Under the pieces are notes generated by a model. It was not told the origin of the DNA and did no database searches. It was given only the letters and a program-made list of their open reading frames with translations. From Minisyncoccia bacterium (lineage in GTDB: Bacteria; Patescibacteriota; Minisyncoccia; Phycocordibacterales; Zambryskibacteraceae), in contig JBASCT010000025.1 of assembly GCA_049651785.1 (NCBI GenBank), positions 5,563 through 69,562 on the forward strand: 64,000 nucleotides of DNA, written 5' to 3'. Below, piece by piece: positions 3,779 through 58,973 of the stretch; within the stretch, counting starts at the first letter, position 1, and each line of letters begins with the position of its first letter. Made by a program: the position numbers and the translations under genes.

Positions 3779-3855
3779 TCCGCGATACCCGCCCGAACGT
3801 ACCGTTCGGTACGGGCGGGGCTCAGTCCCGAAGGGAAGCCTTCGGCTTTGGTAGA
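3779..3855 (+). repeat. Pseudo-copy of the tRNA-Asn 5' half, interrupted by a 32-nt GC-rich palindrome and a second hairpin
   Basis: TCCGCGATA, then the palindrome at 3788-3819, then GCTCAGT, then the CCGAAGG-GAAG-CCTTCGG hairpin, then TTGGTAGA. The non-inserted bases equal tRNA-Asn positions 1-24. Confidence 0.7.
3788..3819. repeat. GC-rich palindromic element, family copy 1
   Basis: CCCGCCCGAACGTACCGTTCGGTACGGGCGGG, 32 nt, near-perfect hairpin. Confidence 0.8.
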
Positions 3856-3882: not shown

Positions 3883-3955
3883 TCCGCGATAGCTCAGTTG
3901 GTAGAGCGCCTCCCTGTTAAGGAGGATGTCCCAGGTTCGAGCCCTGGTCGCGGAG
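3883..3955 (+). tRNA. tRNA-Asn(GUU)
   Basis: Cloverleaf with acceptor TCCGCGA/TCGCGGA, anticodon loop CTGTTAA, T-loop TTCGAGC. CCA is not encoded. Confidence 0.9.
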
Positions 3956-4026
3956 CAAGGTTATTTGCCTACGCCTAGGGCATTGTGCTAGTGTCTTGGC
4001 GGGTTAATTCTTTAGAAAGGAGACGC

Positions 4027-30388: not shown

Positions 30389-33300
30389 TGTTTTGGGAGT
30401 TATCTGGCTTCCCGCCCGAACGACCGAAATCATTCGGTCGGGCGGGCTTCTTCAAATCGACATCAAGGGAAAGGCCGCGCAAGTTGTTCAAAAGGACGTT
30501 GAAAGAAGCCGGCAGGTGCGGATCGGGAATTTTTTCACCCTTAACTATGGCGTCGAAGGCGGCCGAGCGGCCGATGATGTCGTCAGATTTAATCGTGAGC
30601 ATTTCGCGGAGGGTGTGGCTTACGCCGTGACCCAAAAGCGCCCAGACTTCCATCTCGCCGAAGCGCTGACCGCCGTTCTGCGCCTTGCCGCCCAAGGGCT
30701 GCTGGGTGATGAGAGAATACGGTCCGATAGAGCGCATGTGGATTTTGTCCTCGACCATGTGGTGAAGTTTGAGGACATACATGTAACCGACGGCAATATC
30801 TTGTTCGAACTCTTCTCCGGTGCGACCGTCAAAGAGTTTCACCTTGCCGTTTTTCTTAAAGCCGGCCTTGGTGAGCTCCTCCTGTATTTCTTCTTCCGAG
30901 GCGCCGGCGAAGGGCGGCACGATGGCCTGATAGTTGAGCGTGTGGGCGGCGAGACCCAAATGCATTTCAAGAATTTGCCCGAGATTCATACGTGAAGGCA
31001 CGCCGAGAGGTGTCAGGATAATATCGATCGGCGTGCCGTCCGCCATGTAAGGCATTTCCTCAACCGGCAGAATTTTTGAAATGACTCCTTTGTTGCCGTG
31101 GCGTCCCGCGAGCTTGTCGCCTACGGAAACATTGCGGAGCTGGGCCACCTGAATATGAATTTGTTTCAAAATGCCCGACTCAAGTTTGTCCCCCTTCTCA
31201 CGGCTGAAGATTTGAACCGAGATAACGCGGCCGCGCTTACCCCCTTCCATGCGCTTTGAAGTATCTTTGACATCGCGCGCTTTCTCGCCGAAAAGCGAGC
31301 GAAGCAGGCGCTCCTCTGGGGTAAGTTGCGACTCGCCCTTCGGCGTAATCTTGCCGACAAGAATATCGCCGGGGCGCACCTCGGCGCCGACGCGGATAAT
31401 GCCGTCCTCGGCCAGATTTTTAAGCTTTGACTCTCCGACATTCGGGATGTCACAGGTAGTCATCTCCGGGCCGAGTTTCGTATCGCGGACATTGACCGTG
31501 AATTCTTCGACGTGAATCGAAGTAAATTTGCTCTTCTCGACCAGGCGCTCGGAAATGATGATGGCGTCTTCGTAATTGGCACCCGACCAGGACATGAAGG
31601 CGACAAGAGCATTTTGTCCCACGGCCATCTGTCCGCCGGCGGAAGATGAGGTGTCGGCGAGGACCTTGCCCTTCTTAACCTTTTGTCCGACTTCAACCGA
31701 GGGTCTCTGGTGGAAGGTCGTGAAGCCGTTCGTCATTGAAAAATTGACCAAAGGAAACTTGTGCGTATTGCCCTTGTTATCCTTGACCTGAATCATCTTG
31801 CCGTCGACATACGAGACTGCGCCGTCAACGGTCGAGACGACCATACGTCCGGTGTCGCGAATAGCCGCCTCCTCGATACCTGTGGCGACAAGCGGCACTT
31901 CGGGCACGATGCAGGGTGTTGCCTGTTTCTGCATGTTCGAACCCATGAGCGCGCGGTTGGCGTCGTCGTGGTTGAGGAAGGGAATCATCGAGGTGGCGAC
32001 GGAAAAAGCCTGATTTGTAGCCACATCCATAAACTGTACCTCTCCCTTAGGGATGAGCTGGGGTCTACCACCAAGGCGAACCTCGACCATGTCGGAGACA
32101 ATCTTGTCCTCCTCCATCACCGTGGCGGCATGGGAGATACTCGAATTTTCTTCCTCCAAGGCGTTCAGGAATTTTATTTCGCCCGTAATTTTTCCGTCCT
32201 TAACTACAGCGTAAGGGGTCTCTATCATGCCGAAGTCGTTGATTCTCGCGTAGCAAGAAAGGCGCAAAATAAGACCGATGTTCGGACCTTCGGGGGTCTG
32301 AATCGGACAGAGTCTGCCGTAGTGCGAAGGATGAACGTCGCGGACTTCGTACCCGGCGCGCGCGCGGTTGAGACCGCCGGGACCGAGAGCCGAGACGGTG
32401 CGCAGATGCTCAAGCTCGGCGAGCGTATTTTCCTGCTGGGCAAATTGGGACAATTGGTTCGTGGTGAAAAATTCTTTGATTCTTGCCTGCAGGGGTTTGG
32501 GCGAGATAAAGTGGACCGGCAGCGTAACGTCGGTGTCGATTGTCGACATTCTGTTCTGGATATTGCGCTTAATCTGCGCCATACCTACGCGGATTTTCTG
32601 TTGGAAAAGCTCACCCACGAGGCGCACCCTCCTTGAGCCGAGGTGGTCTATGTCGTCGGGTTGGGCATCGGGCACTGCGTTCAGGCGCGCCATGTGCGAG
32701 ATAATCGTGACGAAATCGGCAAGCGAGAGCGTGCGGCGATCAATCTCCTTGGCGGAATCCTTGCCGCCGAAACGATTGTTGAATCGGAAGCGTCCGACGC
32801 GGGAGAGATCGTAGCGGTCTTTGCTGAAAATGGAGAGCACGAATTCACGGGCATTGTCGGCCGCGGCGAGATCTCCATCGCGAAGTCGCTTGTGTATCTC
32901 GATTGCTGCCTCGTCGACGGTCGTCGTGTGGTCCTTGGCCAGAGTTTTTTCTAGGTGGCGCTTGGTTTCGGGAACGTTTTCGAACAGAGCAAGAATCTTT
33001 TCATTCGAGATGACGTGGTTTGTGTTGCCCGCCATAAGGAACCGCAAGAGCGTTGTAACCGGGAATTTTCTTTTTCGGTCGATTCTGACGTAGAGAGTGC
33101 CGTCGAGATCGGTCTCAAGCTCGATCCAAGCGCCGCGACCGGGGATGATTTTGGCGCCAAAAGTCTTTTTGCCCCTGAGTTCCTGAGTGGTGAAAGAAAT
33201 ACCGGTTGAGCGGGCAAGCTGAGGAACAATCACCCGCTCAATGCCGGAGATGATGAAGGTGCCGTGGGAAGTCATGAGAGGAAAGTCGGCCATGAAGATT

Positions 33301-35208: not shown

Positions 35209-36105
35209 TTAGAGCGCTTTCTCGGCTTCGATGAATTCATCGAGGCCGCCCTGGAGCACTTTCTCGACATCCCGAATTTCCACATCGGTGCGATGGTCCT
35301 TTACCATCTTGTAAGGGTGAAGAACATAGGAGCGAATTTGGTTCCCCCATTCTATCTGAGTGGTCTTCGAGATATACATGCCTTTTTCTTTCGCCTTGCG
35401 TTCATCCTCTAACTTTCTGTAGAGCTTAGCTTCCAAGAGACGCAGGGCTTTCTCTCTGTTCTGGGCCTGCGAGCGCTCGGACTCGACATGCGCCGAAAGA
35501 TTAGTCGGAAGGTGGACGAGGCGCACCGCCGTCTCGCGTTTATTGACATTCTGGCCGCCCGGGCCGCTTGAGCGCGAGTACTCGGTCTTTAGCTCCTCCG
35601 GCGGGATTTTAACCTCTTCCTGTTTTTCAAATTTCGGAATTACTTCCACCATGGAAAAAGAGGTGTGGCGAAGTGCTTTGGCATTAAAGGGCGAGATGCG
35701 CACCAAGCGGTGAACCCCGGATTCGTTTTTAAGCGTGCCATAGACACCTGCCTGCGCAGGCGGGCTTTTGCCGCTAATTTCCAAAGTGATATTGCGGTAC
35801 CCGCCGTGGTCATTTTCGTTTTTATGGATAACAGAGTAGCGCCACTTATTTTTTTCGAAGAATTTCATATACATCTCAAGGAGAATGCGGGAGAAATCCT
35901 CGGCGTCGTCGCCGCCCGCGCCGGAAAATATTGTCATAACGGCGTCGCCCGGGTCGAATTTCCCTAAGCCCGCTAGCTCTCCCTTGAGCGACTCGTACTC
36001 GCGAAGAGTCGCCTGGGCACGAGTTTTGTCCGCCCAAAATTCTGCAGAAGACATCTCTGTCTCAAGCTCTTCAATCTTTTTCTCTAAGTCTTTTTTATTA
36101 GACAT
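35209..36105 (-). CDS. prfB: Peptide chain release factor 2, uninterrupted with no programmed frameshift
   Basis: SPF and GGQ motifs present. Confidence 0.85.
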   Translation of the reverse strand: MSNKKDLEKKIEELETEMSSAEFWADKTRAQATLREYESLKGELAGLGKFDPGDAVMTIFSGAGGDDAEDFSRILLEMYMKFFEKNKWRYSVIHKNENDHGGYRNITLEISGKSPPAQAGVYGTLKNESGVHRLVRISPFNAKALRHTSFSMVEVIPKFEKQEEVKIPPEELKTEYSRSSGPGGQNVNKRETAVRLVHLPTNLSAHVESERSQAQNREKALRLLEAKLYRKLEDERKAKEKGMYISKTTQIEWGNQIRSYVLHPYKMVKDHRTDVEIRDVEKVLQGGLDEFIEAEKAL

Positions 36106-36106
36106 G

Positions 36107-36179
36107 AGCCGGAGGCGAGAGTCGAACTCGCGACTTACCCCTTACGAAGGGGTTACTCTACCAACTGAGTTACTCCGGC
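36107..36179 (-). tRNA. tRNA-Thr(CGU)
   Basis: GCCGGAG acceptor, anticodon loop TTCGTAA, T-loop TTCGACT. Confidence 0.85.
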
Positions 36180-36182
36180 TTA

Positions 36183-36279
36183 GTGCTCCCCGCCCGTACC
36201 GAACGTCCGCCCGGACGAATACCCATTCGGACGGGTATTCGGTACGTTCGGGCGGGTACCAACTGAGCTAAGGTGGCGC
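36183..36279 (-). repeat. Pseudo-copy of a tRNA 5' half with a 68-nt composite GC-rich palindrome inserted between D-arm positions 21 and 22
   Basis: On the minus strand: GCGCCACCTTAGCTCAGTTGGTA, then the insert at 36189-36256, then GAGCACTAA, then directly tRNA-Thr(CGU). The D-arm is identical to that of the tRNA-Thr(GGU) gene. Confidence 0.65.
36189..36256. repeat. GC-rich palindromic element, composite copy
   Basis: CCCGCCCGAACGTACCG...CGGTACGGGCGGG with an inner TCCGCCCGGACGAATACCC/GGGTATTCG hairpin. Confidence 0.75.
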
Positions 36280-36335
36280 AAGTTAAGATAAGCTCAAGTG
36301 AACTTTAGCAAAAATGAGGGCTTAAGAAAAGATTG

Positions 36336-36656
36336 TCAGGCGAGGCGCTCTTTGAAAAAAGAGAACGTGAAAACGGTTGCGTTCTTGACGAAAAGAAGGG
36401 CGGTGATGAGGGCGAGGATAAAAATGCTTTTAACCAAAATATCAGTGTGCGAGAAGGCCATGACAAGATAGCTGTAAAAGTCTCCCGAGGCGAGCATGTT
36501 GGCCACGACGCTCGGCACGGAGACGAAGAAAAGAAGAATGACCGCAAAAATAAGAAAGAGCACCACCTCGGCGATAAGGGGACTTCTGAACTTGCGCGTA
36601 AGATACGCGAGGTAGACGCCGAACATTATTCTACTTTTCATATTTATTAGTTTCAT
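36336..36656 (-). CDS. Small membrane protein, candidate anti-sigma factor (inference from context)
   Basis: Three TM helices. ATGA overlap with the ECF sigma gene upstream. Confidence 0.4.
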   Translation of the reverse strand: MKLINMKSRIMFGVYLAYLTRKFRSPLIAEVVLFLIFAVILLFFVSVPSVVANMLASGDFYSYLVMAFSHTDILVKSIFILALITALLFVKNATVFTFSFFKERLA

Positions 36657-37204
36657 GCCATCTGGAGCGCCACCACTCTAAACTGTTTCTTCGCCCTATG
36701 AAGCCCGGAGCGAACGGCCGAGAGGGACAGCCTCTCTATTTCCGCGATTTCTTCATAACTTTTCTCCTCGAAGAAGTATAGAGAAAGAAGGCGCGCCAAG
36801 TTCTCCGGCAGGCGCGAGAGGACCGACTGAACAAACGAGAGCTGTTCCCTGTCGCGTATTACTTCCGAGCCGATAAGATCCAGTTCGGCGAAGTCTATGG
36901 CCTTAACACGGCTCGCCTCTCGGGTCTTCTTGGAAGAGTGCGTGTAGCAGGTGTTGACGAGAATCCTGTACGCCCAGGAACGGAAGCTTGCCCCCTTTCG
37001 TTCGGAGAACTTGTGGGAATACTTGTAGATCTTGATAAAAGTCTCCTGGACCGCGTCCTCGGCGGCGTCACGAGAATGAAGAATGCTCTCGCCCTTCCTT
37101 AAGAAAGCTTCCTGGTGCCTTTCAACAAGAATGCCGAACATCCAAGGTGCTTCTTGCGATTTTTGGAGTACATTCGCGTCTGAAAGTTCTGGATCTCTTA
37201 CCAT
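36653..37204 (-). CDS. ECF-type RNA polymerase sigma factor (sigma-70 family group 4)
   Basis: Region 2 AVQETFIKIYKYSHKF and region 4 YEEIAEIERLSLSAVRSGLHRAKK. Confidence 0.8.
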   Translation of the reverse strand: MVRDPELSDANVLQKSQEAPWMFGILVERHQEAFLRKGESILHSRDAAEDAVQETFIKIYKYSHKFSERKGASFRSWAYRILVNTCYTHSSKKTREASRVKAIDFAELDLIGSEVIRDREQLSFVQSVLSRLPENLARLLSLYFFEEKSYEEIAEIERLSLSAVRSGLHRAKKQFRVVALQMA

Positions 37205-37310
37205 AGATAAGGGAACGGAGCGCGCTTAGGTGACGCTCCAGGTTACTTTTAAAAATGTTCCCTTCATCCATTATAACTCTTTTGGAACCAAAAAAGTTGC
37301 ACGACTTCGG

Positions 37311-37566
37311 AGCCAAGATCGGGGATCGAACCCGAGACCTCATCCTTCGCTTACACCTCTTTTTCTTTTTATAAGAGGGCTAGACTGTATCTTCCACTCA
37401 CCGGCTAAGGTGAGTAGCTCTTGTCAGTCGTTCGGGCGCTTAGCGCCACGGTCTGAACCTGTTAGGGCCTTTAACCGTTATTCGAGATTCACTCAAAAAT
37501 TACTTTCTAAGTGGGCAGGATTAGCGATCCACCATGGATGTGCTCTACCAACTGAGCTATCTTGGC
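37311..37566 (-). tRNA. tRNA-Thr(GGU) split by a 183-nt intervening sequence between nucleotides 36 and 37
   Basis: Exon 1 is GCCAAGATAGCTCAGTTGGTAGAGCACATCCATGGT. Exon 2 is AAGGATGAGGTCTCGGGTTCGATCCCCGATCTTGGCT. Joined, they give a canonical Thr(GGU) cloverleaf. Confidence 0.7.
37348..37530 (-). other. Intervening sequence, candidate group I-type self-splicing intron
   Basis: The 5' exon ends in U and the intron ends in G. R-like GGTTCAGACC and S-like AAGATACAGTCTAG elements are present. Contains GCGCCCGAACGACTG, which is shared with the palindromic repeat family. Confidence 0.5.
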
Positions 37567-37590
37567 GCTTATTGGTACCACAAAATAATA

Positions 37591-38184
37591 TTACAATGAG
37601 GGAAAGTTTTCAATCAGACTATCAAACATTTTTTTAAGTTTAGTGTTATTAAAATAAACAGTTAAAACGCCATATTGATTTTTATTCCTATAACTTCCTG
37701 TCCCGCGAGACGGTGTAATTATAATCTTCTGAAATTGTGATTTTCTTACGCCAAGCTTATTCATCCAAAATCTCTGAGCTGCCACAGGAGAAATGTCAGA
37801 AAATATTTGGAGTCCAAATTTTAACTTATCTTTATCTATTCCATATATTTTATTTAAAAACGTCATATAGGCCATTATGAGTCTCGGATCAACATTGCCT
37901 AATCTTATTGAGTTTTTGTTTCTTTTGTTCCCTTCTCCCCAGAATAAGCCTATACCTAGCCCAAAAAGTTGCCATTCATCCTTAGTTTTTGGTGGTTTGA
38001 AAATAAAGGGATCGCCTTTTGGATTATATCTAAGGTATGTGGCGTCTGATATAGATCTTTTGGGGATTTTGTATTTAGAAATCCAATAATTTATTTTGTT
38101 TTGAGAAACTCCTGTTTTCCTAGCTATTTCTGCAACAGACAACTGTTTTTTTAAATACCATCTCCTTAGCTTACTTTCATTCAT
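37591..38184 (-). CDS. Putative freestanding homing endonuclease (LAGLIDADG-like GLFWGEGN motif) with an N-terminal HTH
   Basis: About 33% GC against about 50% for the genome. HTH LSVAEIARKTGVSQ. Immediately upstream of the intron-containing tRNA. Confidence 0.4.
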   Translation of the reverse strand: MNESKLRRWYLKKQLSVAEIARKTGVSQNKINYWISKYKIPKRSISDATYLRYNPKGDPFIFKPPKTKDEWQLFGLGIGLFWGEGNKRNKNSIRLGNVDPRLIMAYMTFLNKIYGIDKDKLKFGLQIFSDISPVAAQRFWMNKLGVRKSQFQKIIITPSRGTGSYRNKNQYGVLTVYFNNTKLKKMFDSLIENFPSL

Positions 38185-38229
38185 TAGTAGAATTATACCA
38201 TATAAGTATATTACTCTACCGATAGAGTT

Positions 38230-38649
38230 CTAAGCCCTTTTGGCAAAATAATTTTTGAGCGTCTCCGTAATCCTATGGCCCCCGGGTGGCAGGTCGCGCA
38301 GATCTTTTTCACCAACCCAGCGGAAAGAGTTGTGCTCGCTACTTAAAACTACCTCCCCCGACTTGTATCGGGCGAGGTAAACTATCATAAAAATCTTTTT
38401 GTCGGCATTTCGGTGCTCCTTGGCGAAGCTCGATATCCAGGAAGCTACCGGCCCACCCGCCTCAATTTCAAGACCCGTTTCCTCTCTCACCTCTCTCTTG
38501 AGGGCCTCTATATGGTCGGTCTCCCCCGCCTGCACCTTGCCACCGGGTAAGTCGAGGAGCCCTCCGCCCGAGCGCGTTAAAACCAGCACCTTGCCGTCTC
38601 TTTCTATGAGTGCCTTCTGTCCGACAAAAAATACTTCGTCGTTGTTCAT
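38230..38649 (-). CDS. NUDIX hydrolase
   Basis: Nudix box GGKVQAGETDHIEALKREVREETGL. Confidence 0.8.
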   Translation of the reverse strand: MNNDEVFFVGQKALIERDGKVLVLTRSGGGLLDLPGGKVQAGETDHIEALKREVREETGLEIEAGGPVASWISSFAKEHRNADKKIFMIVYLARYKSGEVVLSSEHNSFRWVGEKDLRDLPPGGHRITETLKNYFAKRA

Positions 38650-38654
38650 TCGAG

Positions 38655-38728
38655 CGCGGCCAACCGGACTTGAACCGGCAACCTCTCCCGTGACAGGGGA
38701 GTGCTCTAACCAGTTGAGCTATGACCGC
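38655..38728 (-). tRNA. tRNA-Asp(GUC)
   Basis: GCGGTCA acceptor, anticodon loop CTGTCAC, T-loop TTCAAGT. Confidence 0.85.
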
Positions 38729-38958
38729 AATTTTAATTTTAGATATCTTCTTCCAGCGGCGCTTTTTAAATACAATTCTCGCTTGCGCGCCACCTCAAAG
38801 GTATCATGTTTTTCGGTATAAACAAGACGAATACCGGACATTTTAGAAGTGGTCAGAGTCTTGCCTCCCCCATGCTCATTAAGACGCCTTGCAAGATTGT
38901 TGGTAAGTCCTTTATATAACTTACCTTTATTGTCCCGTAATACGTAAACGACGTACAT
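38719..38958 (-). CDS. GIY-YIG nuclease family small protein (YhbQ/YazA-like), 79 aa
   Basis: YVVYVLRDNKGKLYKGLTNNLARRLNEH. The 3' end overlaps tRNA-Asp by 10 nt. Confidence 0.7.
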   Translation of the reverse strand: MYVVYVLRDNKGKLYKGLTNNLARRLNEHGGGKTLTTSKMSGIRLVYTEKHDTFEVARKRELYLKSAAGRRYLKLKLRS

Positions 38959-38970
38959 AAATAAGTGCTC

Positions 38971-38998
38971 CCCGCCCGACTGAAGTCGTTCGGGCAGG
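38971..38998. repeat. GC-rich palindromic element copy, CCTGCCCGAACGACTTCAGTCGGGCGGG
   Basis: 28 nt. Shares GCCCGAACGACT with the tRNA intron and with the pilin-leader copy. Confidence 0.75.
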
Positions 38999-39011
38999 TA
39001 ACCAGTTGAGC

Positions 39012-39043
39012 CCCGCCCGTACCGAACGGTACGTTCGGGCGGG
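39012..39043. repeat. GC-rich palindromic element copy, identical to the tRNA-Asn copy
   Basis: CCCGCCCGAACGTACCGTTCGGTACGGGCGGG. Confidence 0.8.
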
Positions 39044-39095
39044 TATGACCGCAGTGCACTACAAAGTACCAGATTTTTTGGGCTTTATCAATTTG

Positions 39096-39166
39096 TGCCG
39101 GCAAATGGAATCGGACCATTGTTTGAGGCTTATGAGTCCTCCGTTCTACCATTGAACTATGCCGGC
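39096..39166 (-). tRNA. tRNA with CAU anticodon, elongator Met or Ile2 (lysidine), with an atypical T-loop
   Basis: GCCGGCA acceptor, loop CTCATAA, G1-C72 paired, T-loop TCCGATT (C55 in place of U), 31-39 A/G mismatch. Confidence 0.55.
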
Positions 39167-39178
39167 AAGTGACCATAA

Positions 39179-39207
39179 ACTATATTATGAAATCTTGATT
39201 TTCTCAA
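39179..39207 (-). promoter_or_regulatory. Promoter TTGAGA-17-TATAGT for the minus-strand CAU tRNA
   Basis: Back-to-back with the plus-strand promoter. The -35 boxes are 1 nt apart. Confidence 0.4.
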
Positions 39208-39223
39208 GAAATGCGAGTACAAT
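39195..39223 (+). promoter_or_regulatory. Promoter TTGATT-17-TACAAT for the plus-strand initiator-like tRNA
   Basis: tRNA 5' end lies 9 nt after the -10. Confidence 0.45.
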
Positions 39224-39231
39224 CTGCGAAC

Positions 39232-39305
39232 AGCGGGTTGGAGGAGTAGTACCTCGACAGGCTCATAACCTGTAGGCATCCGTGCAAATCGGATACCCGC
39301 AACCA
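39232..39305 (+). tRNA. Initiator-like tRNA-fMet(CAU)
   Basis: A1/A72 mismatch, A11:U24, U8, loop CTCATAA, CCA encoded, unusual T-loop TGCAAAT. Confidence 0.5.
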
Positions 39306-39325
39306 TTCGACAAGCTCATGGCGAG

Positions 39326-39997
39326 CTAGATTGCTCCGAATTCTCTGAAAACTTCTTCGAAAAGCGCGATGACGCGCTTGGTTTCGCGCTCGGTAATCTG
39401 GAAGTCGCTGCCGGAGTGCACCAGAGTATTCCTTACCTTATGCGCTTCCCAGGCGGCGTCAATCGAAGAAAACTGGTTTTTATCGACCGATTTCAAGATC
39501 TCCCCCACCGAGTCGCCCCGGTAGCCGAGAGTCTCAAGCAGCTCCTCAAGCATCACGTCGGCTTCTATCACGGCCATACGGCGGTCTGAAGGATTTTCCG
39601 AATTGGCAAGAGCCAAAATCTTTTCCCACTTGGTATTTTTCTCGGCCGAAAGGTCGCCCCCGGTAACCGCGACGGCTCCGGGAGGTGGTCCGGGGTTAAA
39701 GATTGCAAGCTCCGCGAGACTCAAGGCGCGGAGCTTCCAAGCGTTGCTGATAGTGCCGACAAAAAGTCCCGCGCAAAAAAAGATTGCAATCATTTTCCAC
39801 TTCGGCCAGATGTTATTGAGAAAATAATCCGCGATTCTGCCGAAAATAGAGCCTTCGAGGGAGAGGTTCCCGAAATTATTAATAAAAGCCGTAACCAGGG
39901 CCCCGAGAAGAGCCAAGCCAAAGAGAAGGAAAACTATTTCTTCAAAAGCTTTTTTGTCGAGCTCGGTACCGGTAATTTCTTTCTTTTTCTCGGCCAT
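39326..39997 (-). CDS. Membrane protein with a C-terminal soluble domain, unknown function (possible HEPN-like Rx4H motif)
   Basis: Two TM helices. C-terminal HKVRNTLVH. Confidence 0.45.
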   Translation of the reverse strand: MAEKKKEITGTELDKKAFEEIVFLLFGLALLGALVTAFINNFGNLSLEGSIFGRIADYFLNNIWPKWKMIAIFFCAGLFVGTISNAWKLRALSLAELAIFNPGPPPGAVAVTGGDLSAEKNTKWEKILALANSENPSDRRMAVIEADVMLEELLETLGYRGDSVGEILKSVDKNQFSSIDAAWEAHKVRNTLVHSGSDFQITERETKRVIALFEEVFREFGAI

Positions 39998-44305: not shown

Positions 44306-44871
44306 GGCCAGTTTAAAATATTTTCCCGCGCCTGGAACTCTTGGTTTGTAGAGCCGTGCATCCAGTTAATGGTGACCAGAACGGAAATTTCTTTGGCATC
44401 AACTTGAGTGATAATAATTTCGCGTCGAAATTTCGTCTCGCTCCAAGCCCCGTTGTGTCCATAGAAAAGATTGGTGGCGTCCTGACGAAGCAAGGGGCAA
44501 GACTCGATGGCGCTGCAACGCGTCGGCACAGTCGAGTTTATCGGGTCAACAATGCAGGCATTACCGAACCAGCAGGGGTCATTAATGTTTGAGGCAATGC
44601 CCGTAAGCCAGTTCCTGTTATTGAGCGCGTTCTCGTCGCGCATGTTTCGGATAAATTCGAACCCCTCTTGAGCAAGGTAAAATGCGGTTATCTGGTCGCG
44701 TGAAAAAGTGTAGGACGAAATCGCGGTCCTAACAGCGCTTGAAACTCCTGTAATGGCCGTGATGAGAATCACGATAGCGACTAGGCTTTCGACGAGAGAG
44801 AATCCCCGCCCGAACGACTTTCGTCGTTCTGTCGGGCGGGCGTTTTGCTTTGTGTGTGTTTCTTTTGTCAT
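44302..44871 (-). CDS. Pseudopilin (PilV/GspI-like) with an unusually long 29-aa leader containing a palindromic-element insertion
   Basis: ...RRKSFGRG|FSLVESLVAIVILIT. Start placed at the internal Met (MTKETH), ATGA-coupled to the upstream gene. Confidence 0.6.
   Translation of the reverse strand: MTKETHTKQNARPTERRKSFGRGFSLVESLVAIVILITAITGVSSAVRTAISSYTFSRDQITAFYLAQEGFEFIRNMRDENALNNRNWLTGIASNINDPCWFGNACIVDPINSTVPTRCSAIESCPLLRQDATNLFYGHNGAWSETKFRREIIITQVDAKEISVLVTINWMHGSTNQEFQARENILNWP
44805..44840. repeat. GC-rich palindromic element copy, 36 nt, in frame within the prepilin leader coding region
   Basis: CCCGCCCGAACGACTTTCGTCGTTCTGTCGGGCGGG. It encodes ARPTERRKSFGR. Confidence 0.75.
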
Positions 44872-46072: not shown

Positions 46073-46859
46073 GGTTGAAGTTGAGGTGGAAGAAGAGTGC
46101 GAGCCAGGCGCCTAAGACTATCGCGGGGCCGAAGGGCACTTCAGACTTCATTGTAAGGCCTTTATCGCTCTTTATAAAGCCTGCCTGCGCAGGCAGGCCG
46201 AGTTTTACAACAAAAAAGAGAATGAGCGCCGCCAGAGCGCCAAGCCAGAAGGCAAAGATTATGGCCGAGAAACCTTTTGCCGCGCCGAGAAGTAGACCCA
46301 CGGAGAGTCCGAGTTTCGCGTCGCCGAAACCCATCGCCCGACCGCGCGAAAAGAGCCAGATGGAGCCGAAAAAGACGAAAATGATCGGTCCCGCGAGAAG
46401 GTCCAAGAAGTAAGGCGTAGGAAGTGAGAAGTAAGAATACATACGATACCCAAGAGCGAGTAAAATGCAGGTATAGACGAGCGTGTCGGGAATGATTTTA
46501 TGGCGTATATCATAAATAGTAATGACAATGTAGAGAGAAAAAACCGCAACCAGAACAAGATAATTCAGAAATGACAAAAGATTTAACGGATCAATAATGT
46601 AGAAAAGGGAGGCAAAGATAAGTCCTGTCCAAATTTCAATTATCGGATACTGCCAGGAAATCGGTGCCTGACAGCCGGAACACTTTCTTTTTAAGAGAAA
46701 AAAGCTCAAAACCGGGATAAGTTCGTGCCAAGAAAGTGTCTTGGCGCAATTTGGACAGGCCGAGCGACCGCCAAAGTTTTTTGAATCCCAACGAAGCCCG
46801 ATGACATTCAAGAAACTCCCGACAATGGTACCCAAAACAAAAAGGATGACTAAGGTCAT
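46056..46859 (-). CDS. pilD: Prepilin peptidase PilD (A24 family)
   Basis: N-terminal CPNC...CSGC zinc motif, eight TM helices, GFGDAKL. Confidence 0.85.
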   Translation of the reverse strand: MTLVILFVLGTIVGSFLNVIGLRWDSKNFGGRSACPNCAKTLSWHELIPVLSFFLLKRKCSGCQAPISWQYPIIEIWTGLIFASLFYIIDPLNLLSFLNYLVLVAVFSLYIVITIYDIRHKIIPDTLVYTCILLALGYRMYSYFSLPTPYFLDLLAGPIIFVFFGSIWLFSRGRAMGFGDAKLGLSVGLLLGAAKGFSAIIFAFWLGALAALILFFVVKLGLPAQAGFIKSDKGLTMKSEVPFGPAIVLGAWLALFFHLNFNHVLPI

Positions 46860-55395: not shown

Positions 55396-56055
55396 ATGGA
55401 ACTCTTTTCAAACATCCGTGAGACCGTCACCGACTTCCTCTTCCCGAAGTCGAAGCGCGTTTTGGAATTGGAAGCCCTCTCCGCGCCAGAACTTTTGAAG
55501 ACCTTGCCCGGAGCCGATAAGCCAGAGCGAGGAAACGTTTGGGCAATCTTTAGCTACGAGAACACGCTGGTAAAAGAGCTCGTCTGGGAGCTCAAGTATT
55601 CGGGCAACAAAGTCATTGCCGCGAAACTTGGCGAGATCCTTTTCGACTTTTTGAAAAATAAATTGGCGGAGGAGAAAATTTTTGACACATATCCCCGCCC
55701 GCTTGTCGTGCCCATCCCGATCCCGGGCAAGCGCCTCTTCGAGCGGGGCTGGAATCAGGCGGAGCTTCTGGTCGCCGAATTAAAAAAGCGCGACCCGGAG
55801 CACGTCTTCAAGTATCTCTCGGGACAGCTCGTGAAGGCGCGTTATACGGAGAGTCAGACCAAAACTTCGACACGCGCGGAGCGGGCGAAAAATCTCAAGG
55901 ACAGCATGAGAATTTTAAACCCAGCCTCGGTCGCGGGGTCATGTGTCGCGGTAATTGATGATGTGACCACGACGGGCTCAACTTTCGCCGAGGCGGAGCG
56001 CGCGCTCAAAGCGGCGGGGGCGAAAAAAGTTCTCGGTATTGCTATTGCCCATTAG
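55396..56055 (+). CDS. comFC: ComF/ComFC-family phosphoribosyltransferase-like competence protein
   Basis: PRTase motif VAVIDDVTTTGSTF. Divergent from pilM. The six-frame ORF 54667..56055 is over-extended. Confidence 0.7.
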   Translation: MELFSNIRETVTDFLFPKSKRVLELEALSAPELLKTLPGADKPERGNVWAIFSYENTLVKELVWELKYSGNKVIAAKLGEILFDFLKNKLAEEKIFDTYPRPLVVPIPIPGKRLFERGWNQAELLVAELKKRDPEHVFKYLSGQLVKARYTESQTKTSTRAERAKNLKDSMRILNPASVAGSCVAVIDDVTTTGSTFAEAERALKAAGAKKVLGIAIAH

Positions 56056-56086
56056 GCCCTAGAGACCTTCGTTTTGGTCTGTCATT

Positions 56087-56488
56087 TTATCTTGTTCTTA
56101 AAAGTGTGTTCACCATTATCACCCCCGCGACGTTGAAGTCCTCCCACTCGGGCGCGGGCTTCTCGGAGACGAGGCGCATCCTGCCCGTGACGGCGATAGT
56201 GTCTTCCACCTTAAGGTCGGTATTGGCATCCTGAATTCTCGAGATATCGAGAGCGTAGAAGAGGCCGTCGCGGGACTTAACGCCCAGAGTGCAGGCGGCG
56301 TCTTCGTTCGGCTCCTTGAGAGGCAGACAGCTGAAAGAGCCCGTGATAGTGACCATGTCGTCTATCTCGTCGTTCACCACCTTATCCCAGCCCTTGAAGA
56401 GGATGGCGCCGAGAACGAGGAGCGCGAAAAGGACCACGAGCCAGACGGCATTTTTCCTAACAGGTCCCTTGTTTTCGTAGTCGTCCAT
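56087..56488 (-). CDS. Membrane-anchored hypothetical protein
   Basis: N-terminal TM. No homolog recognised. Confidence 0.45.
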   Translation of the reverse strand: MDDYENKGPVRKNAVWLVVLFALLVLGAILFKGWDKVVNDEIDDMVTITGSFSCLPLKEPNEDAACTLGVKSRDGLFYALDISRIQDANTDLKVEDTIAVTGRMRLVSEKPAPEWEDFNVAGVIMVNTLLRTR

Positions 56489-56610
56489 ATTTAGCGAGCG
56501 CTCCCTTCCCTCATATTTCCCTTATTATACCCCTTCTAGACGCCCGAGCAAGCTGGGACTTACAGATTGAGCATGGGATCTATAGTATCGAGCTCGTGTT
56601 TCTGGCTCGT

Positions 56611-57483
56611 TCATATTCCTATTTTCCAAACTCCCTTCTCGAGAAAAGCTTCAATGGTCTGCCTAGTTGCTTTATTGATAAGATTTGAGTGGGATGTCTT
56701 TTGAGATTTTGCATAATCAACTAAAGTCACAATTTTCTTCCCTTCCAAGTACGCCAAACGTTTGTGATAACTATTGGTCAGAGCTTTCGCGACTATCTCT
56801 TCCATTATTTCTGTTTTACCCTTTTCATCAAATTCCTTAAAAGCATCGTAGTACTTCGCTCGGTCGATGAATTTAATATTGATTGGCACAAAACCTTCTC
56901 TGATTAAAAGATAGTTATTGAGCACACGACCAATGCGTCCGTTACCGTCTATAAATGGGTGGGTGTATTCAAACGCGAGGTGCAGTTTTGCAATCCTCTT
57001 CACAACACTCTTATGATTACTTGCGTTATATTCCGCAAGCATTGTCTCTAGTCGCCCTACAACTTCTCGCGCATGAGGCGCAATGTGGCTACCGACACGT
57101 ACTCGCTCATCCCCCTCACGAAATCGTCCTGCGATATCGTCACGGATATTTGAGATGAGCATTTTATGAAGCGAAAGCATGACGTCGAGTGTCAATTCTT
57201 GTTCTTTCGCTCGTTTATCAATATATGAAACAACTTTTGCAAGGTTTTTTGCTTCAAAAATTTCTCGTTGGTTGATAAACCGATCGAGGTCAATCTGAAG
57301 TAATATCTTTTCCGTTTCTTCTAGTGTGAGCGTGCTGTTTTCGATTGCGTTTGAGTTGTACACCTGCTCTGGTATCTCTGCCTCGTTGACAAGCTTAATA
57401 ACCGCCTCTTTTCCCATAGAAGCTTTGTAGTAACGCTCACGAAGAGTATTGATTTTGCTAAATACTGCCGGTGTCTTTGCCAT
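56611..57483 (-). CDS. Fic/Doc family protein
   Basis: Fic motif HPFIDGNGRIGR. Confidence 0.85.
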   Translation of the reverse strand: MAKTPAVFSKINTLRERYYKASMGKEAVIKLVNEAEIPEQVYNSNAIENSTLTLEETEKILLQIDLDRFINQREIFEAKNLAKVVSYIDKRAKEQELTLDVMLSLHKMLISNIRDDIAGRFREGDERVRVGSHIAPHAREVVGRLETMLAEYNASNHKSVVKRIAKLHLAFEYTHPFIDGNGRIGRVLNNYLLIREGFVPINIKFIDRAKYYDAFKEFDEKGKTEIMEEIVAKALTNSYHKRLAYLEGKKIVTLVDYAKSQKTSHSNLINKATRQTIEAFLEKGVWKIGI

Positions 57484-57491
57484 ATATCATA

Positions 57492-57519
57492 AGTATAGCT
57501 ATTTTCACGCTTTTGTCAA
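57492..57519 (-). promoter_or_regulatory. Promoter TTGACA-16-TATACT for fic. The -10 lies about 8 nt before the ATG, so the mRNA is probably leaderless
   Basis: Read on the reverse strand. Overlaps a 14-bp direct-repeat copy. Confidence 0.4.
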
Positions 57520-57565
57520 CATAATCGTGAAAATCACTGAAAAATCTCGCTTTTTCACGCTTTTG
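57502..57565. repeat. Two 14-bp direct repeats TTTTCACGCTTTTG (57502-57515 and 57552-57565) plus an inverted half-site CGTGAAAA (57526-57533)
   Basis: Exact copies 50 bp apart in the fic upstream region. Operator-like. Confidence 0.6.
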
Positions 57566-57825
57566 ACTATAATTCCCCCTTAGGCATTCTTCAGCGCCTC
57601 AATATCGATCTTCTTCATACTAAGCAGTTTCTCCCACGCCTTTGGTTTGAGTATGAGCTTTTCAATATTTTCCGGATTAATTTGCCACGAGAGACCGTAC
57701 TTATCCTTGCACCAGCCACACTTTTCCCTTAAACCATAAGTTCGGTGTTATTTTTTGCATAAGGATATTTTACTACTTTTAAAGCCGAGAGACCTTTCTT
57801 ATATAGAGAAAAGGTTGAATTTGTG

Positions 57826-58233
57826 TTAGTTTTTATCTCTAAGAAGTTTTTTTCCAAGATTTACTAGCTTATTTGTAAGTCCTGTGCCTTCCAAAATTTG
57901 TTTTTTTAATGCATTAATGTCTGTTGGGTTCAAACTTCCAGTTATAGGAAAGTTTTCCCATTTTTCTACGTGTTTATCGGAGTTGTGCAGATGGGCTGCA
58001 AGTCCTTCAAAATCACGACTTGTTAGTATCACATAGGCAAGTACGGGCGCATTAATGTCATCGGTGTGAAGCTTTTTTTCGTATTTTTTAGTAAGGTTTC
58101 TAACAATATTTGTTGCATCTTCATTAAGAATCTTTGCAACATGATATTCATCATTTTCTACGTCTGAAAACAACCAAACATACGGGTTTCCTTTAAACAA
58201 GAATACTTGTCCGAAGGTTATAAGCGGACCCAT
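57826..58233 (-). CDS. Hypothetical 135-aa protein, candidate toxin partner of the Panacea-domain gene
   Basis: Starts 3 nt after the Panacea gene stop. About 33% GC. No homolog recognised. Confidence 0.45.
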   Translation of the reverse strand: MGPLITFGQVFLFKGNPYVWLFSDVENDEYHVAKILNEDATNIVRNLTKKYEKKLHTDDINAPVLAYVILTSRDFEGLAAHLHNSDKHVEKWENFPITGSLNPTDINALKKQILEGTGLTNKLVNLGKKLLRDKN

Positions 58234-58236
58234 ATC

Positions 58237-58779
58237 TTACACAGCTATTTTTAACGCGGCTTCAATGTCTTCCTTTTCAACAAAGCTGTCCTTGTCATCA
58301 GCACCAAGTTCGTATGGTATAAACTCACCAAGTTTTGTTTTTAGCCACGCCGATTCATTGTGAGACGCTTCTTCGATTTGCTTTCCAGTACTATCTCTAA
58401 AAATCTCACAAACCTCTTCCATTACTTTGAGTTCGCTTTTAGTAAAGTATTCTGCATCTTTTGGAGTGAATTTTCTCTTGACTAGTATTTTTTTCATTTT
58501 GCTATCCTCTCTTTCAACCACTGAAATCGTGTCACCCAAAACTGAGTTATCAATATCAGTTTCCACAGAATTAACCAAATTCATGATTGCAGAAGGAACT
58601 GGCCCGTGCTCCAAATTCACGTAGTTATCACTTGTTATGGGTGTTAAATATTTTTTTACGTGCCGAAAATCCGCAAAGTAAAAGAGCTTCATGAGCTTTG
58701 TTTTCCCCATCAAATTTGGGTCTGTGTAAGTAGCGAAGTAAAGAATCATCTTTTTTACCTTCGCTTGTGATATTTTCAT
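58237..58779 (-). CDS. Panacea (DUF4065, SocA-like) domain protein, candidate antitoxin
   Basis: KLMKLFYFADF...LEHGPV motif typical of DUF4065 as I recall it. Confidence 0.55.
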   Translation of the reverse strand: MKISQAKVKKMILYFATYTDPNLMGKTKLMKLFYFADFRHVKKYLTPITSDNYVNLEHGPVPSAIMNLVNSVETDIDNSVLGDTISVVEREDSKMKKILVKRKFTPKDAEYFTKSELKVMEEVCEIFRDSTGKQIEEASHNESAWLKTKLGEFIPYELGADDKDSFVEKEDIEAALKIAV

Positions 58780-58973
58780 CTATAAATTGCCTTGCGCTCG
58801 ATGCGCTTATTATAACATTAACGAGTCAAAGTGGGTTGTCCACAATACAGATTTTTGTTGAAAAGTCAAGCCATCTACGAATGGATTTTGCCGCCAAGGA
58901 TCATAAGTGGACAAAACGCACAAATAGTAAGTAGCCGCCGAACTTTTCCTGCTAGCATTTCAGGGGATTTATA

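Follow-up and report, generated by a model that had tools for sequence, protein, structure and literature searches.

In the 64-kb stretch of DNA analysed here (henceforth the window), four genes or gene pieces follow one another on the minus strand: a tRNA-Met gene, a broken copy of the 5' part of tRNA-Asp, a small open reading frame (ORF) of the GIY-YIG type and an intact tRNA-Asp gene. In the order in which they would be read, the features of this locus are:

39207..39179, minus strand: promoter-like site upstream of tRNA-Met, from a consensus scan only
39166..39095, minus strand: tRNA-Met(CAT), called by ARAGORN, upstream of the tRNA-Asp remnant
39044..39052, minus strand: positions 1-9 of the tRNA-Asp remnant, GCGGTCATA, identical to the start of the gene
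39012..39043, minus strand: hairpin 1, 32 nt, CCCGCCCGAACGTACCGTTCGGTACGGGCGGG, between A9 and G10 of the remnant
38999..39011, minus strand: positions 10-22 of the remnant, GCTCAACTGGTTA
38971..38998, minus strand: hairpin 2, 28 nt, CCTGCCCGAACGACTTCAGTCGGGCGGG, at the junction of the D-loop with the 3' strand of the D-stem
38964..38970, minus strand: positions 23-29 of the remnant, GAGCACT
38719..38958, minus strand: stand-alone GIY-YIG gene of 79 aa (UPF0213/Slx1-like), PF01541
38654..38728, minus strand: intact tRNA-Asp(GTC), called by ARAGORN, Rfam score 67.7 bits

Re-reading of the sequence revealed that 39052..38964 on the minus strand reproduces positions 1-29 of tRNA-Asp(GTC) with zero mismatches, split by the two hairpins, and that the repeat partner of this remnant is the first 29 nt of the intact tRNA-Asp gene. 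The minus-strand order is GCGGTCATA, CCCGCCCGAACGTACCGTTCGGTACGGGCGGG, GCTCAACTGGTTA, CCTGCCCGAACGACTTCAGTCGGGCGGG, GAGCACT, TATTT and the ATG of the GIY-YIG ORF, the duplication thus ending 5 nt 5' of this start codon. The remnant starts 324 nt and ends 236 nt upstream of the start of the tRNA-Asp gene, and the 234-264 bp that separate the two repeats hold the GIY-YIG ORF as their sole content. The initial annotation of this DNA had described a duplicated 5' half of 27 nt, about 230 nt upstream of the gene and interrupted after positions 9 and 21 by palindromes of 32 and 28 nt. The duplication itself stands as an exact split match, as do the break after position 9 and the sizes of both palindromes; the copy is 28 nt long rather than 27 (29-30 nt with the T on each side), and the second break falls after position 22 rather than 21.

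A search with the gapped remnant pattern gave a single match (38965-39052, minus strand) and none in 100 shuffles, and the unsplit 28-mer has its sole occurrence at the start of the tRNA-Asp gene (38701-38728, minus strand). An independent Logan contig (L001, run SRR28011868), found through the neighbouring NUDIX protein, confirms the window sequence and ends inside the 32-nt hairpin. Since L001 carries the same sequence, the locus is not an assembly artefact of the window, and the split match, the shuffle result and the independent contig together indicate that the feature is real and not a chance match. A consensus scan found no terminator between tRNA-Met and tRNA-Asp. With the promoter-like site 5' of tRNA-Met and no terminator after it, the tRNA-Met, the remnant, the ORF and tRNA-Asp are probably co-transcribed as one transcript. 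Rfam searches at the gathering threshold and at E<=1 returned tRNAs only, with no intron, riboswitch or leader family (introns were checked over 36000-39400).

The product of the ORF matches Pfam PF01541 over residues 1-70 (E=7.5e-13; 49 bits, cut-off 22.6), and its TAG stop codon coincides with U8-A9-G10 of the intact tRNA-Asp, in agreement with the initial annotation, which had placed a GIY-YIG gene between copy and gene with its 3' end inside the tRNA. Residues Y5, Y15-K16-G17, R24, R25, H29, E49, R58 and E61 are invariant across 30 homologues, with the same pattern across loci; we take the invariant Tyr, Arg, His and Glu residues to have the catalytic roles generally ascribed to them in the GIY-YIG family. 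The AlphaFold model (pLDDT 92.6) contains a three-stranded sheet with flanking helices, as in solved members of the family, and the closest folds in the PDB are 1zg2 and 1ywl, both UPF0213 structural-genomics proteins, followed by Slx1 (6seh_C; TM 0.66, rmsd 2.5 A) and UvrC (1yd5). The sequence also matches that of 1ywl (E=1e-4). Slx1 is a structure-specific nuclease that acts on branched DNA. We conclude that the 79-aa protein belongs to the UPF0213/Slx1-like branch of the GIY-YIG superfamily and is a putative nuclease, with tRNA genes as its proposed target. A separate DNA-binding domain is absent, all 79 residues being catalytic domain (relatives mostly have 70-120 aa). The protein is not built like I-TevI or SegB, and site-specific homing of the I-TevI or SegB kind is therefore not expected from the protein alone.

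By its dN/dS of 0.07-0.15 among relatives, the ORF is a selected gene under purifying selection. An exact look-up of its product returned no record and NCBIfam holds no model for it. More than 100 close homologues share 60-76% identity with it, and the source names displayed for them (Minisyncoccia, Paceibacterota, Parcubacteria, Taylorbacteria, Pacebacteria or plain 'bacterium') point to Patescibacteria. A full scan of the family yielded 2,426 clusters at 50% identity, mostly of 70-120 aa.

The tRNA-Asp gene is not alone in being preceded by such a piece. Hairpin-split 5' remnants also lie upstream of three further tRNA genes of the window, those for Asn, Ser and Thr(CGT), and two more hairpins of the same family reside within reading frames:

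3779..3855, plus strand: tRNA-Asn remnant without an ORF, 27 nt upstream of tRNA-Asn (3883-3956)
30411..30446, plus strand: 36-nt member of the hairpin family, read in frame as part of the C-terminal tail encoded by the rpoB frame
36183..36277, minus strand: Thr remnant composed of GCCACCTTAGCTCAGTTGGTA, a 68-nt nested hairpin and GAGCAC, 3 nt upstream of tRNA-Thr(CGT) at 36179..36106
44805..44840, plus strand: 36-nt member of the hairpin family, read in frame within the leader at the N-terminus of a prepilin-like frame
63297..63347, minus strand: tRNA-Ser(GCT) remnant composed of GGAGA, a 37-nt hairpin and CGTGGCTGA, 41 nt upstream of the gene at 63255..63168

The Asn remnant consists of positions 1-9 (TCCGCGATA), the identical 32-mer, positions 10-16 (GCTCAGT), a second hairpin and TGGTAGA; the exact 32-mer of the Asp remnant thus recurs here at the same tRNA position. 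The Thr remnant represents the 5' part of another Thr allele, with an acceptor stem unlike that of the adjoining tRNA-Thr(CGT). Five of the seven members of the hairpin family in the window fall within ~310 nt of tRNA remnants, the other two being those in the rpoB and prepilin-like frames. Neither the three further remnants nor the wide dispersal of the palindrome family had been noted in the initial annotation. No further GIY-YIG copy is present in the window, and an interrupted tRNA-Thr(GGT) is also found near.

A scan of species-representative genomes with the ORF returned 31 loci. In about 23 of these, the 3' end of the ORF abuts or overlaps the start of a tRNA gene on the same strand, and the tRNAs adjoined cover at least nine amino-acid specificities (Thr, Val, Ile, Ala, Asp, His, Asn, Ser and Glu) along with one tRNA of suppressor type (UUA). 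All 23 Patescibacteria loci of this orientation have the layout seen in the window, in which a remnant of the tRNA's own 5' part, broken by one or more hairpins, is followed by the ORF and the tRNA. The 5' copies in these 23 loci end at tRNA positions 27-41, 2-32 nt before the start of the ORF, and their hairpins are GC-rich, measure 20-68 nt and follow positions 8-13 or 20-22. In 16 of 22 loci the ORF has its stop codon within the tRNA, and in 11 of these the codon is U8-A9-G10. A mirror layout, in which the tRNA is followed by the ORF and then by a copy of the 3' part of the tRNA, was found in Niabella, in a Cyclobacteriaceae MAG and in one Patescibacteria locus (L027, tRNA-Leu). The 3' remnants of the Bacteroidota are broken in the T-loop (55/56) by CCTGCCCGAC...CAGGCGGG, a member of the same hairpin family as in the window.

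The remnants differ in their state of preservation. Many are 100% identical to the tRNA at loci whose ORFs have reached saturation in synonymous divergence, and others are decayed or truncated (L002, L004, L007, L015 and L032). The fit between ORF clades and tRNA type is partial: Thr(UGU), Ser, Asn and Arg(CCG) cluster, and Asp, Val, Ile and Ala are mixed. Remnants without an ORF are common, both in the window (Asn, Thr and Ser) and in metagenome contigs, and could form without any nuclease.

Several loci carry signs of mobility. Contig L152, whose kinship to the window is only moderate, presents an empty site, where a 40-nt spacer separates tRNA-Met from an intact tRNA-Asp and neither remnant nor ORF is present. 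The D-arm of tRNA-Asp is the same in L152 and the window, and the window equivalent of the L152 spacer is 42 nt long and is followed by the remnant. L005 is occupied, with a remnant that extends to position 41 and carries one reversed hairpin. Hence, among contigs that are only moderately related, the tRNA-Met/tRNA-Asp site is polymorphic for presence or absence, empty in L152 and occupied in the window and L005. The comparison with related genomes for which the initial annotation had called thus reveals a variable duplication, with hairpins that vary in number and orientation.

Replacement of the resident tRNA is apparent in L009 and L004, where an old tRNA-Thr(UGU) is split at ~34/35 around the ORF and a complete new tRNA. 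The order at these two loci is old positions 1-34 with a hairpin, the ORF, the new tRNA and old positions 35-76 with further hairpins. In both, the acceptor stem of the new tRNA differs from the displaced halves, and in L004 the old halves pair perfectly with one another (GCCAGCG/CGCTGGC) and not with the new tRNA. Similarly, the related contig L152 has a working tRNA-Thr(CGT) whose 5' part is the same as the Thr remnant of the window, and this gene is itself preceded by an older remnant. Sequence flanking the ORF within the target gene has therefore been transferred along with it in L004 and L009, and the window Thr(CGT) locus, compared with L152, likewise has a new acceptor stem beside the displaced piece. 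Two further loci (L045 and L101) read ORF, remnant, ORF, tRNA, and the identical ends of their ORFs suggest tandem amplification through the repeats or re-insertion. We conclude that a small cassette, composed of the ORF and either the 5' part of a tRNA or an entire one, occupies what was once a tRNA gene, is variably present and leaves the displaced half or halves behind as direct repeats. The suggestion in the initial annotation of a recombination or mobile-element scar is borne out by the recurrence of the layout at many tRNA genes, by the empty site in L152 and by the displaced tRNAs that are split around an ORF and a new tRNA.

What distinguishes these direct repeats is the hairpins that break them. 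Both inserts in the Asp remnant fold with an outer GC stem of 8-9 bp, to which the 32-mer adds a 4-nt inner stem. The family architecture comprises the outer stem CC[CT]GCCC/GGGCGGG, a 4-nt bulge (often GAAC) and a variable inner stem-loop, the two sides of which vary in step across the family. In the JGI metagenome collection, at least 120 contigs contain the exact 32-mer. Among the matches listed, 20 of 130 copies have a tRNA within 100 nt (mean 5.6 and maximum 12 at random), 33 of 130 have one within 400 nt (mean 13.5 and maximum 24 at random) and 14 of 130 have a GIY-YIG ORF within 150 nt. About a quarter of these listed copies occupy D-arm contexts (TA/GAGC, TA/GCTC or GCTC/AG, in either orientation), and the remaining ones are found in varied places, short tandem-repeat arrays included. 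About 70% of the listed copies are not close to tRNAs, which indicates that the hairpins also move independently. Their orientation relative to the tRNA strand is mixed and offers no strand clue, and the absence of the 32-mer from viral contigs gives no sign of a phage origin.

No target-site duplication was found at the hairpins: among the matches listed, 80 of 113 contexts lack a flanking repeat, and the 14 contexts with a repeat of at least 5 nt are all in tandem-repeat arrays. Indeed, the tRNA sequence is continuous across both inserts of the Asp remnant. The flanks of the 113 distinct 32-mer contexts among the matches listed share no constant tag, and Rfam gave no match to an RNA family at the hairpin sites of ten metagenome loci. 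The hairpins always break the displaced halves, their insertions can be nested, and their number, place and orientation vary between loci. The type of hairpin changes with the ORF clade: CCTGCCTGCCGGCAGGCAGG is that of the Asn clade and of L027, other GC hairpins occur in the Ser and Glu clades, and the hairpins of the Bacteroidota Arg clade are of the window's type. That hairpin and ORF occur together in more than one phylum speaks for a link between the hairpins and the nuclease system, and against their being mere local junk. Two simple roles for them were considered and set aside. That hairpins first disable intact tRNA genes is unsupported, since removal of the 32-mer restores a complete tRNA in none of 135 copies among the matches listed, hairpins being seen only in already truncated pieces. 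That the hairpin marks the insertion junction of the cassette is ruled out by L009, where the whole downstream tRNA is new, including the 3' acceptor strand.

The reading that we favour, and hold to be reasonably probable, is that 39052..38964 (minus strand) is the displaced 5' part of the resident tRNA-Asp, left over when a nuclease cassette was copied into the gene, and that the cassette is a free-standing, SegB-like element that replaces tRNA genes and is linked to miniature palindromes. A cassette of ~264 bp, in which a minimal stand-alone GIY-YIG gene is joined to a new 5' part of the tRNA (or, in some relatives, is accompanied by a whole new tRNA), would have been copied into tRNA-Asp at the start of the anticodon stem. 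The tRNA-Asp would thereby have been rebuilt downstream, with the old 5' part stranded upstream behind the original promoter. The nuclease would break tRNA genes, and repair would copy the nuclease gene together with a working tRNA, as with SegB of the T-even phage clusters. Expression of the ORF is probably kept low, since the RNase P cut at the 5' end of the tRNA would remove its stop codon. The hairpins would be dispersed miniature palindromes that accompany the nuclease family and enter stem/loop borders of displaced tRNA pieces without target duplication.

Several roles may be proposed for the hairpins. They might be left or produced by a structure-specific nuclease at stem/loop junctions, or be selfish elements that favour folded, transcribed and dispensable DNA. 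Alternatively, they might serve to cut a direct repeat of 30-40 nt into pieces of at most 22 nt, which would slow recombinational loss of the cassette. The identity of remnant and tRNA despite the build-up of hairpins could reflect recent events, co-conversion or gene conversion between the repeats. As the rebuilt tRNA-Asp equals the remnant over 29 nt, it has no visible protection against the nuclease. A switch of tRNA type by the element leaves the matching duplication to be explained. We count both points against the cassette reading.

Could the hairpins themselves be the mobile entity? A GIY-YIG protein that mainly mobilises hairpins in the manner of RAYT and REP elements, by nicking stem/loop junctions of folded DNA, would find in tRNA genes tolerated, highly transcribed and structure-forming sites, and the duplications would be by-products of repair. 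The nearness of the predicted fold to Slx1, the position of the hairpins at stem/loop borders (9/10, 13/14, 21/22, ~36/37, 52/53 and 55/56), their nesting, the lack of target-site duplication and the company that one hairpin family keeps with the ORF in two phyla, shifting in type with the ORF clade, are all in keeping with such a pair. However, most 32-mer copies among the matches listed lie far from any GIY-YIG gene within their contigs, and the scheme does not by itself explain the fusion of the ORF to the tRNA start or the replacement of whole alleles; we regard it as unlikely. Passive recombination in naturally competent, reduced genomes is a second alternative. Imported or slipped DNA would overwrite tRNA genes through the conserved D-arm and T-arm blocks and leave half-genes behind, the GIY-YIG gene being an ordinary co-transcribed small gene and the hairpins unrelated selfish palindromes that survive in dead DNA. 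ORF-less remnants immediately 5' of functional tRNAs, as found both in the window and among metagenome contigs, would be expected from this, as would hairpins in coding tails and tandem repeats and the failure of 32-mer removal to restore any complete tRNA, which confines the hairpins to dead pieces. A remnant at every 5'-side ORF locus, a fixed fusion point of ORF and tRNA, tandem ORF-remnant units and a hairpin that accompanies the ORF in another phylum would not, and we consider this explanation quite unlikely.

The initial annotation had also entertained a deliberately structured leader, in which the tRNA-like 5' piece and its hairpins are kept to control translation of the nuclease or maturation of the tRNA. 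The many remnants that remain fully identical to the tRNA beside ORFs saturated in synonymous divergence would fit this, and the folding of leader plus tRNA that it had proposed gave a second point in its favour: in an equilibrium fold, the 5' strand of the remnant captures the 3' acceptor strand of the tRNA with P=0.97, where the real acceptor stem forms with P=0.92 if the remnant is left out. The remnant thus competes for the acceptor strand, but in silico deletion of the hairpins changes nothing in this equilibrium fold. Moreover, remnants are decayed or truncated in the five loci listed above, the hairpins vary in number, place and orientation, and no Rfam family matches, such that the leader finds no support overall and is improbable. 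A related notion, that the hairpins insulate the leader from the tRNA, is likewise unsupported, the equilibrium fold (a weak test, since it ignores co-transcriptional folding) being the same with and without them. Finally, the upstream half might be the true 5' exon of a degenerate intron or split tRNA that is joined to a 3' half. Group I introns are frequent in the anticodon loops of Patescibacteria tRNA-Asn and tRNA-Asp (PMC13011429), and the interrupted tRNA-Thr(GGT) is near in the window. Yet the downstream tRNA-Asp is complete, which already contradicts exons being joined, 60 nt of hairpins break the upstream half, no intron model or ribozyme core matches at E<=1 over 36000-39400 and a conserved protein gene fills the interval. 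The initial annotation was therefore right to dismiss a group I intron, and we give this last reading almost no credence.

The nuclease-cassette reading has its closest precedent in SegB of phage T4, a free-standing GIY-YIG homing endonuclease that resides in the phage tRNA gene cluster and spreads with neighbouring tRNA genes; its recognition site includes the conserved T-loop motif of tRNA genes (PMC2330249). The end of segB overlaps the next tRNA (tRNA-Arg), tRNA maturation cuts off the stop codon, and self-protection is thought to rest on low expression (PMC2330249). In both systems, then, a GIY-YIG gene lies among tRNA genes with its stop codon inside the next tRNA. By contrast, SegB has a C-terminal DNA-binding part, where the window protein is a bare 79-aa catalytic domain of UPF0213/Slx1 type, and the window element is chromosomal, occurs in Patescibacteria and Bacteroidota and leaves duplicated tRNA halves that are always broken by hairpins. 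Partial tRNA copies are also known from the ends of integrated islands and prophages, where they are att sites of integrases, with examples ranging from viral or island inserts of ~9-23 kb to a genomic island of up to ~121 kb (PMC9897764). Those islands are kilobases long and carry tyrosine integrases, whereas the insert in the window is ~264 bp long and has the 5' part duplicated. No tyrosine or serine integrase is present inside the element, the 234-264 bp between the repeats having room taken up by the GIY-YIG ORF only.

In the atp6 gene of Allomyces (fungal mitochondria), a free-standing GIY-YIG ORF reportedly brings a replacement piece of the target gene while the old piece persists. There too a GIY-YIG ORF moves with part of its target gene and the displaced resident part remains adjacent, but the target is protein-coding and organellar, and we know of no hairpin family that marks remnants of the Allomyces type. 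Miniature palindromes are familiar from REP elements with their RAYT transposases and from the Rickettsia palindromic elements. The hairpins described here resemble them in being GC-rich imperfect palindromes of 20-40 nt with many copies, nested or clustered, in some cases in frame within genes and associated with one small nuclease-type gene. They differ in lacking a constant GTAG/CGTC tag (113 contexts among the matches listed), in lying beside a GIY-YIG gene rather than an HUH Y1 transposase and in strongly preferring displaced tRNA pieces, and they do not show the target-site duplication expected of MITEs. In the literature, as far as the partial journal coverage extends, we found no description of an architecture in which a minimal GIY-YIG gene is accompanied by hairpins and a duplicated half of a tRNA, as in these Patescibacteria. 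The hairpin-broken remnant layout, recurrent as it is among tRNA genes of ultra-small bacteria, is thus apparently undescribed.

A bolder and tentative proposal, which may well prove wrong, is that the Slx1-like GIY-YIG protein and its co-travelling hairpins constitute an unrecognised mobile system. Such a system would cut tRNA-gene DNA that is folded into a cloverleaf or cruciform, at the stem/loop junctions, overwrite resident tRNA genes with a linked copy in the manner of a gene drive and seed hairpins in the displaced halves, and its activity would extend over the Patescibacteria and into the Bacteroidota. If the nuclease indeed recognises DNA structure over sequence, it would be a compact, tool-like enzyme.

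The chief interest of the finding lies in the generality and regularity of the remnant-ORF-tRNA pattern. To our knowledge, stand-alone GIY-YIG proteins of the UPF0213 type have no established function, and the locus offers a context and a testable substrate for this large family with its 2,426 clusters. The identical 32-nt palindrome in so many metagenome contigs points to a miniature element that is either very active or strongly constrained. The half-genes and hairpins mislead tRNA finders and interrupt assemblies, and tRNA-based phylogeny, gene counts and annotation are affected as a result. For the Patescibacteria, with their reduced genomes, the pattern would mean that tRNA genes are repeatedly overwritten by small selfish cassettes.

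Three tRNA 5' remnants that are split by GC-rich hairpins, each immediately 5' of a functional tRNA gene, lack an accompanying ORF:

3779-3855, plus strand, tRNA-Asn 5' remnant
36183-36277, minus strand, tRNA-Thr 5' remnant
63297-63347, minus strand, tRNA-Ser 5' remnant

After the Asn remnant comes TATCGCGGAA, which is complementary to the first 10 nt of that remnant, and after the Ser remnant comes the complement of GTGGCTGA. Two hairpins of the same miniature palindrome family, both in frame with a coding sequence, and one further palindrome lie elsewhere in the window:

30411-30446, 36-nt family hairpin (12 codons) within the rpoB reading frame, in its C-terminal tail
44805-44840, 36-nt family hairpin (12 codons) within a prepilin-like frame, in its leader
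46179-46198, perfect 20-nt palindrome GCCTGCCTGCGCAGGCAGGC, similar to the hairpin type CCTGCCTGCCGGCAGGCAGG of remnants beside the Asn-/Leu-linked GIY-YIG clade

In metagenome contigs, the exact 32-nt hairpin of the tRNA-Asp remnant occurs in several contexts. Four contigs (L062, L109, L119, and L143) carry it in 2-5 copies each within a larger repeat, in which it is preceded by CCGGATGCTT and followed by CGTCGAGTAACGCTTACT, and in further contigs it is embedded in arrays of 5-9-nt tandem repeats. In L038, L077, L108, L138, L123, and L144, its surroundings are kept between samples (AGGATGCGGCTA before the hairpin, TACAAATCGCTCAATTT after it), and Rfam assigned no family to this conserved context.

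At 39232-39305 on the plus strand, ARAGORN called a tRNA-Met(CAT) that is divergently oriented and whose D-arm is unusual; it scored 51.7 bits in a sensitive Rfam run and was absent from the whole-window Rfam run at the gathering threshold. At the end of the window, the last 8 kb (56001-64000) show a negative GC skew and a G+C content of 0.39-0.44, down from about 0.50-0.55, and may be of foreign origin or under different selection.

The minus strand also carries an interrupted tRNA gene, undetected by ARAGORN and by Rfam, and an ORF upstream of it:

37309-37566, minus strand, interrupted tRNA-Thr(GGT)
37566..37531, minus strand, its exon 1
37530..37348, minus strand, its 183-nt intervening sequence, after position 36 and directly before exon 2
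37591-38184, minus strand, 197-aa ORF with an N-terminal helix-turn-helix

Put together, the exons form a canonical 75-nt tRNA resembling that of the related contig L152. The intervening sequence gave no match to an intron model. Group I introns of tRNA genes are on record in Patescibacteria (PMC13011429), and the insert is probably an intron of this type. Only 25 nt separate the end of the 197-aa ORF from the interrupted gene. Pfam returned helix-turn-helix matches only, all weak, and by eye we judged a GLFWGEG stretch to be LAGLIDADG-like; the ORF may represent another endonuclease gene lodged at a tRNA 5' end.
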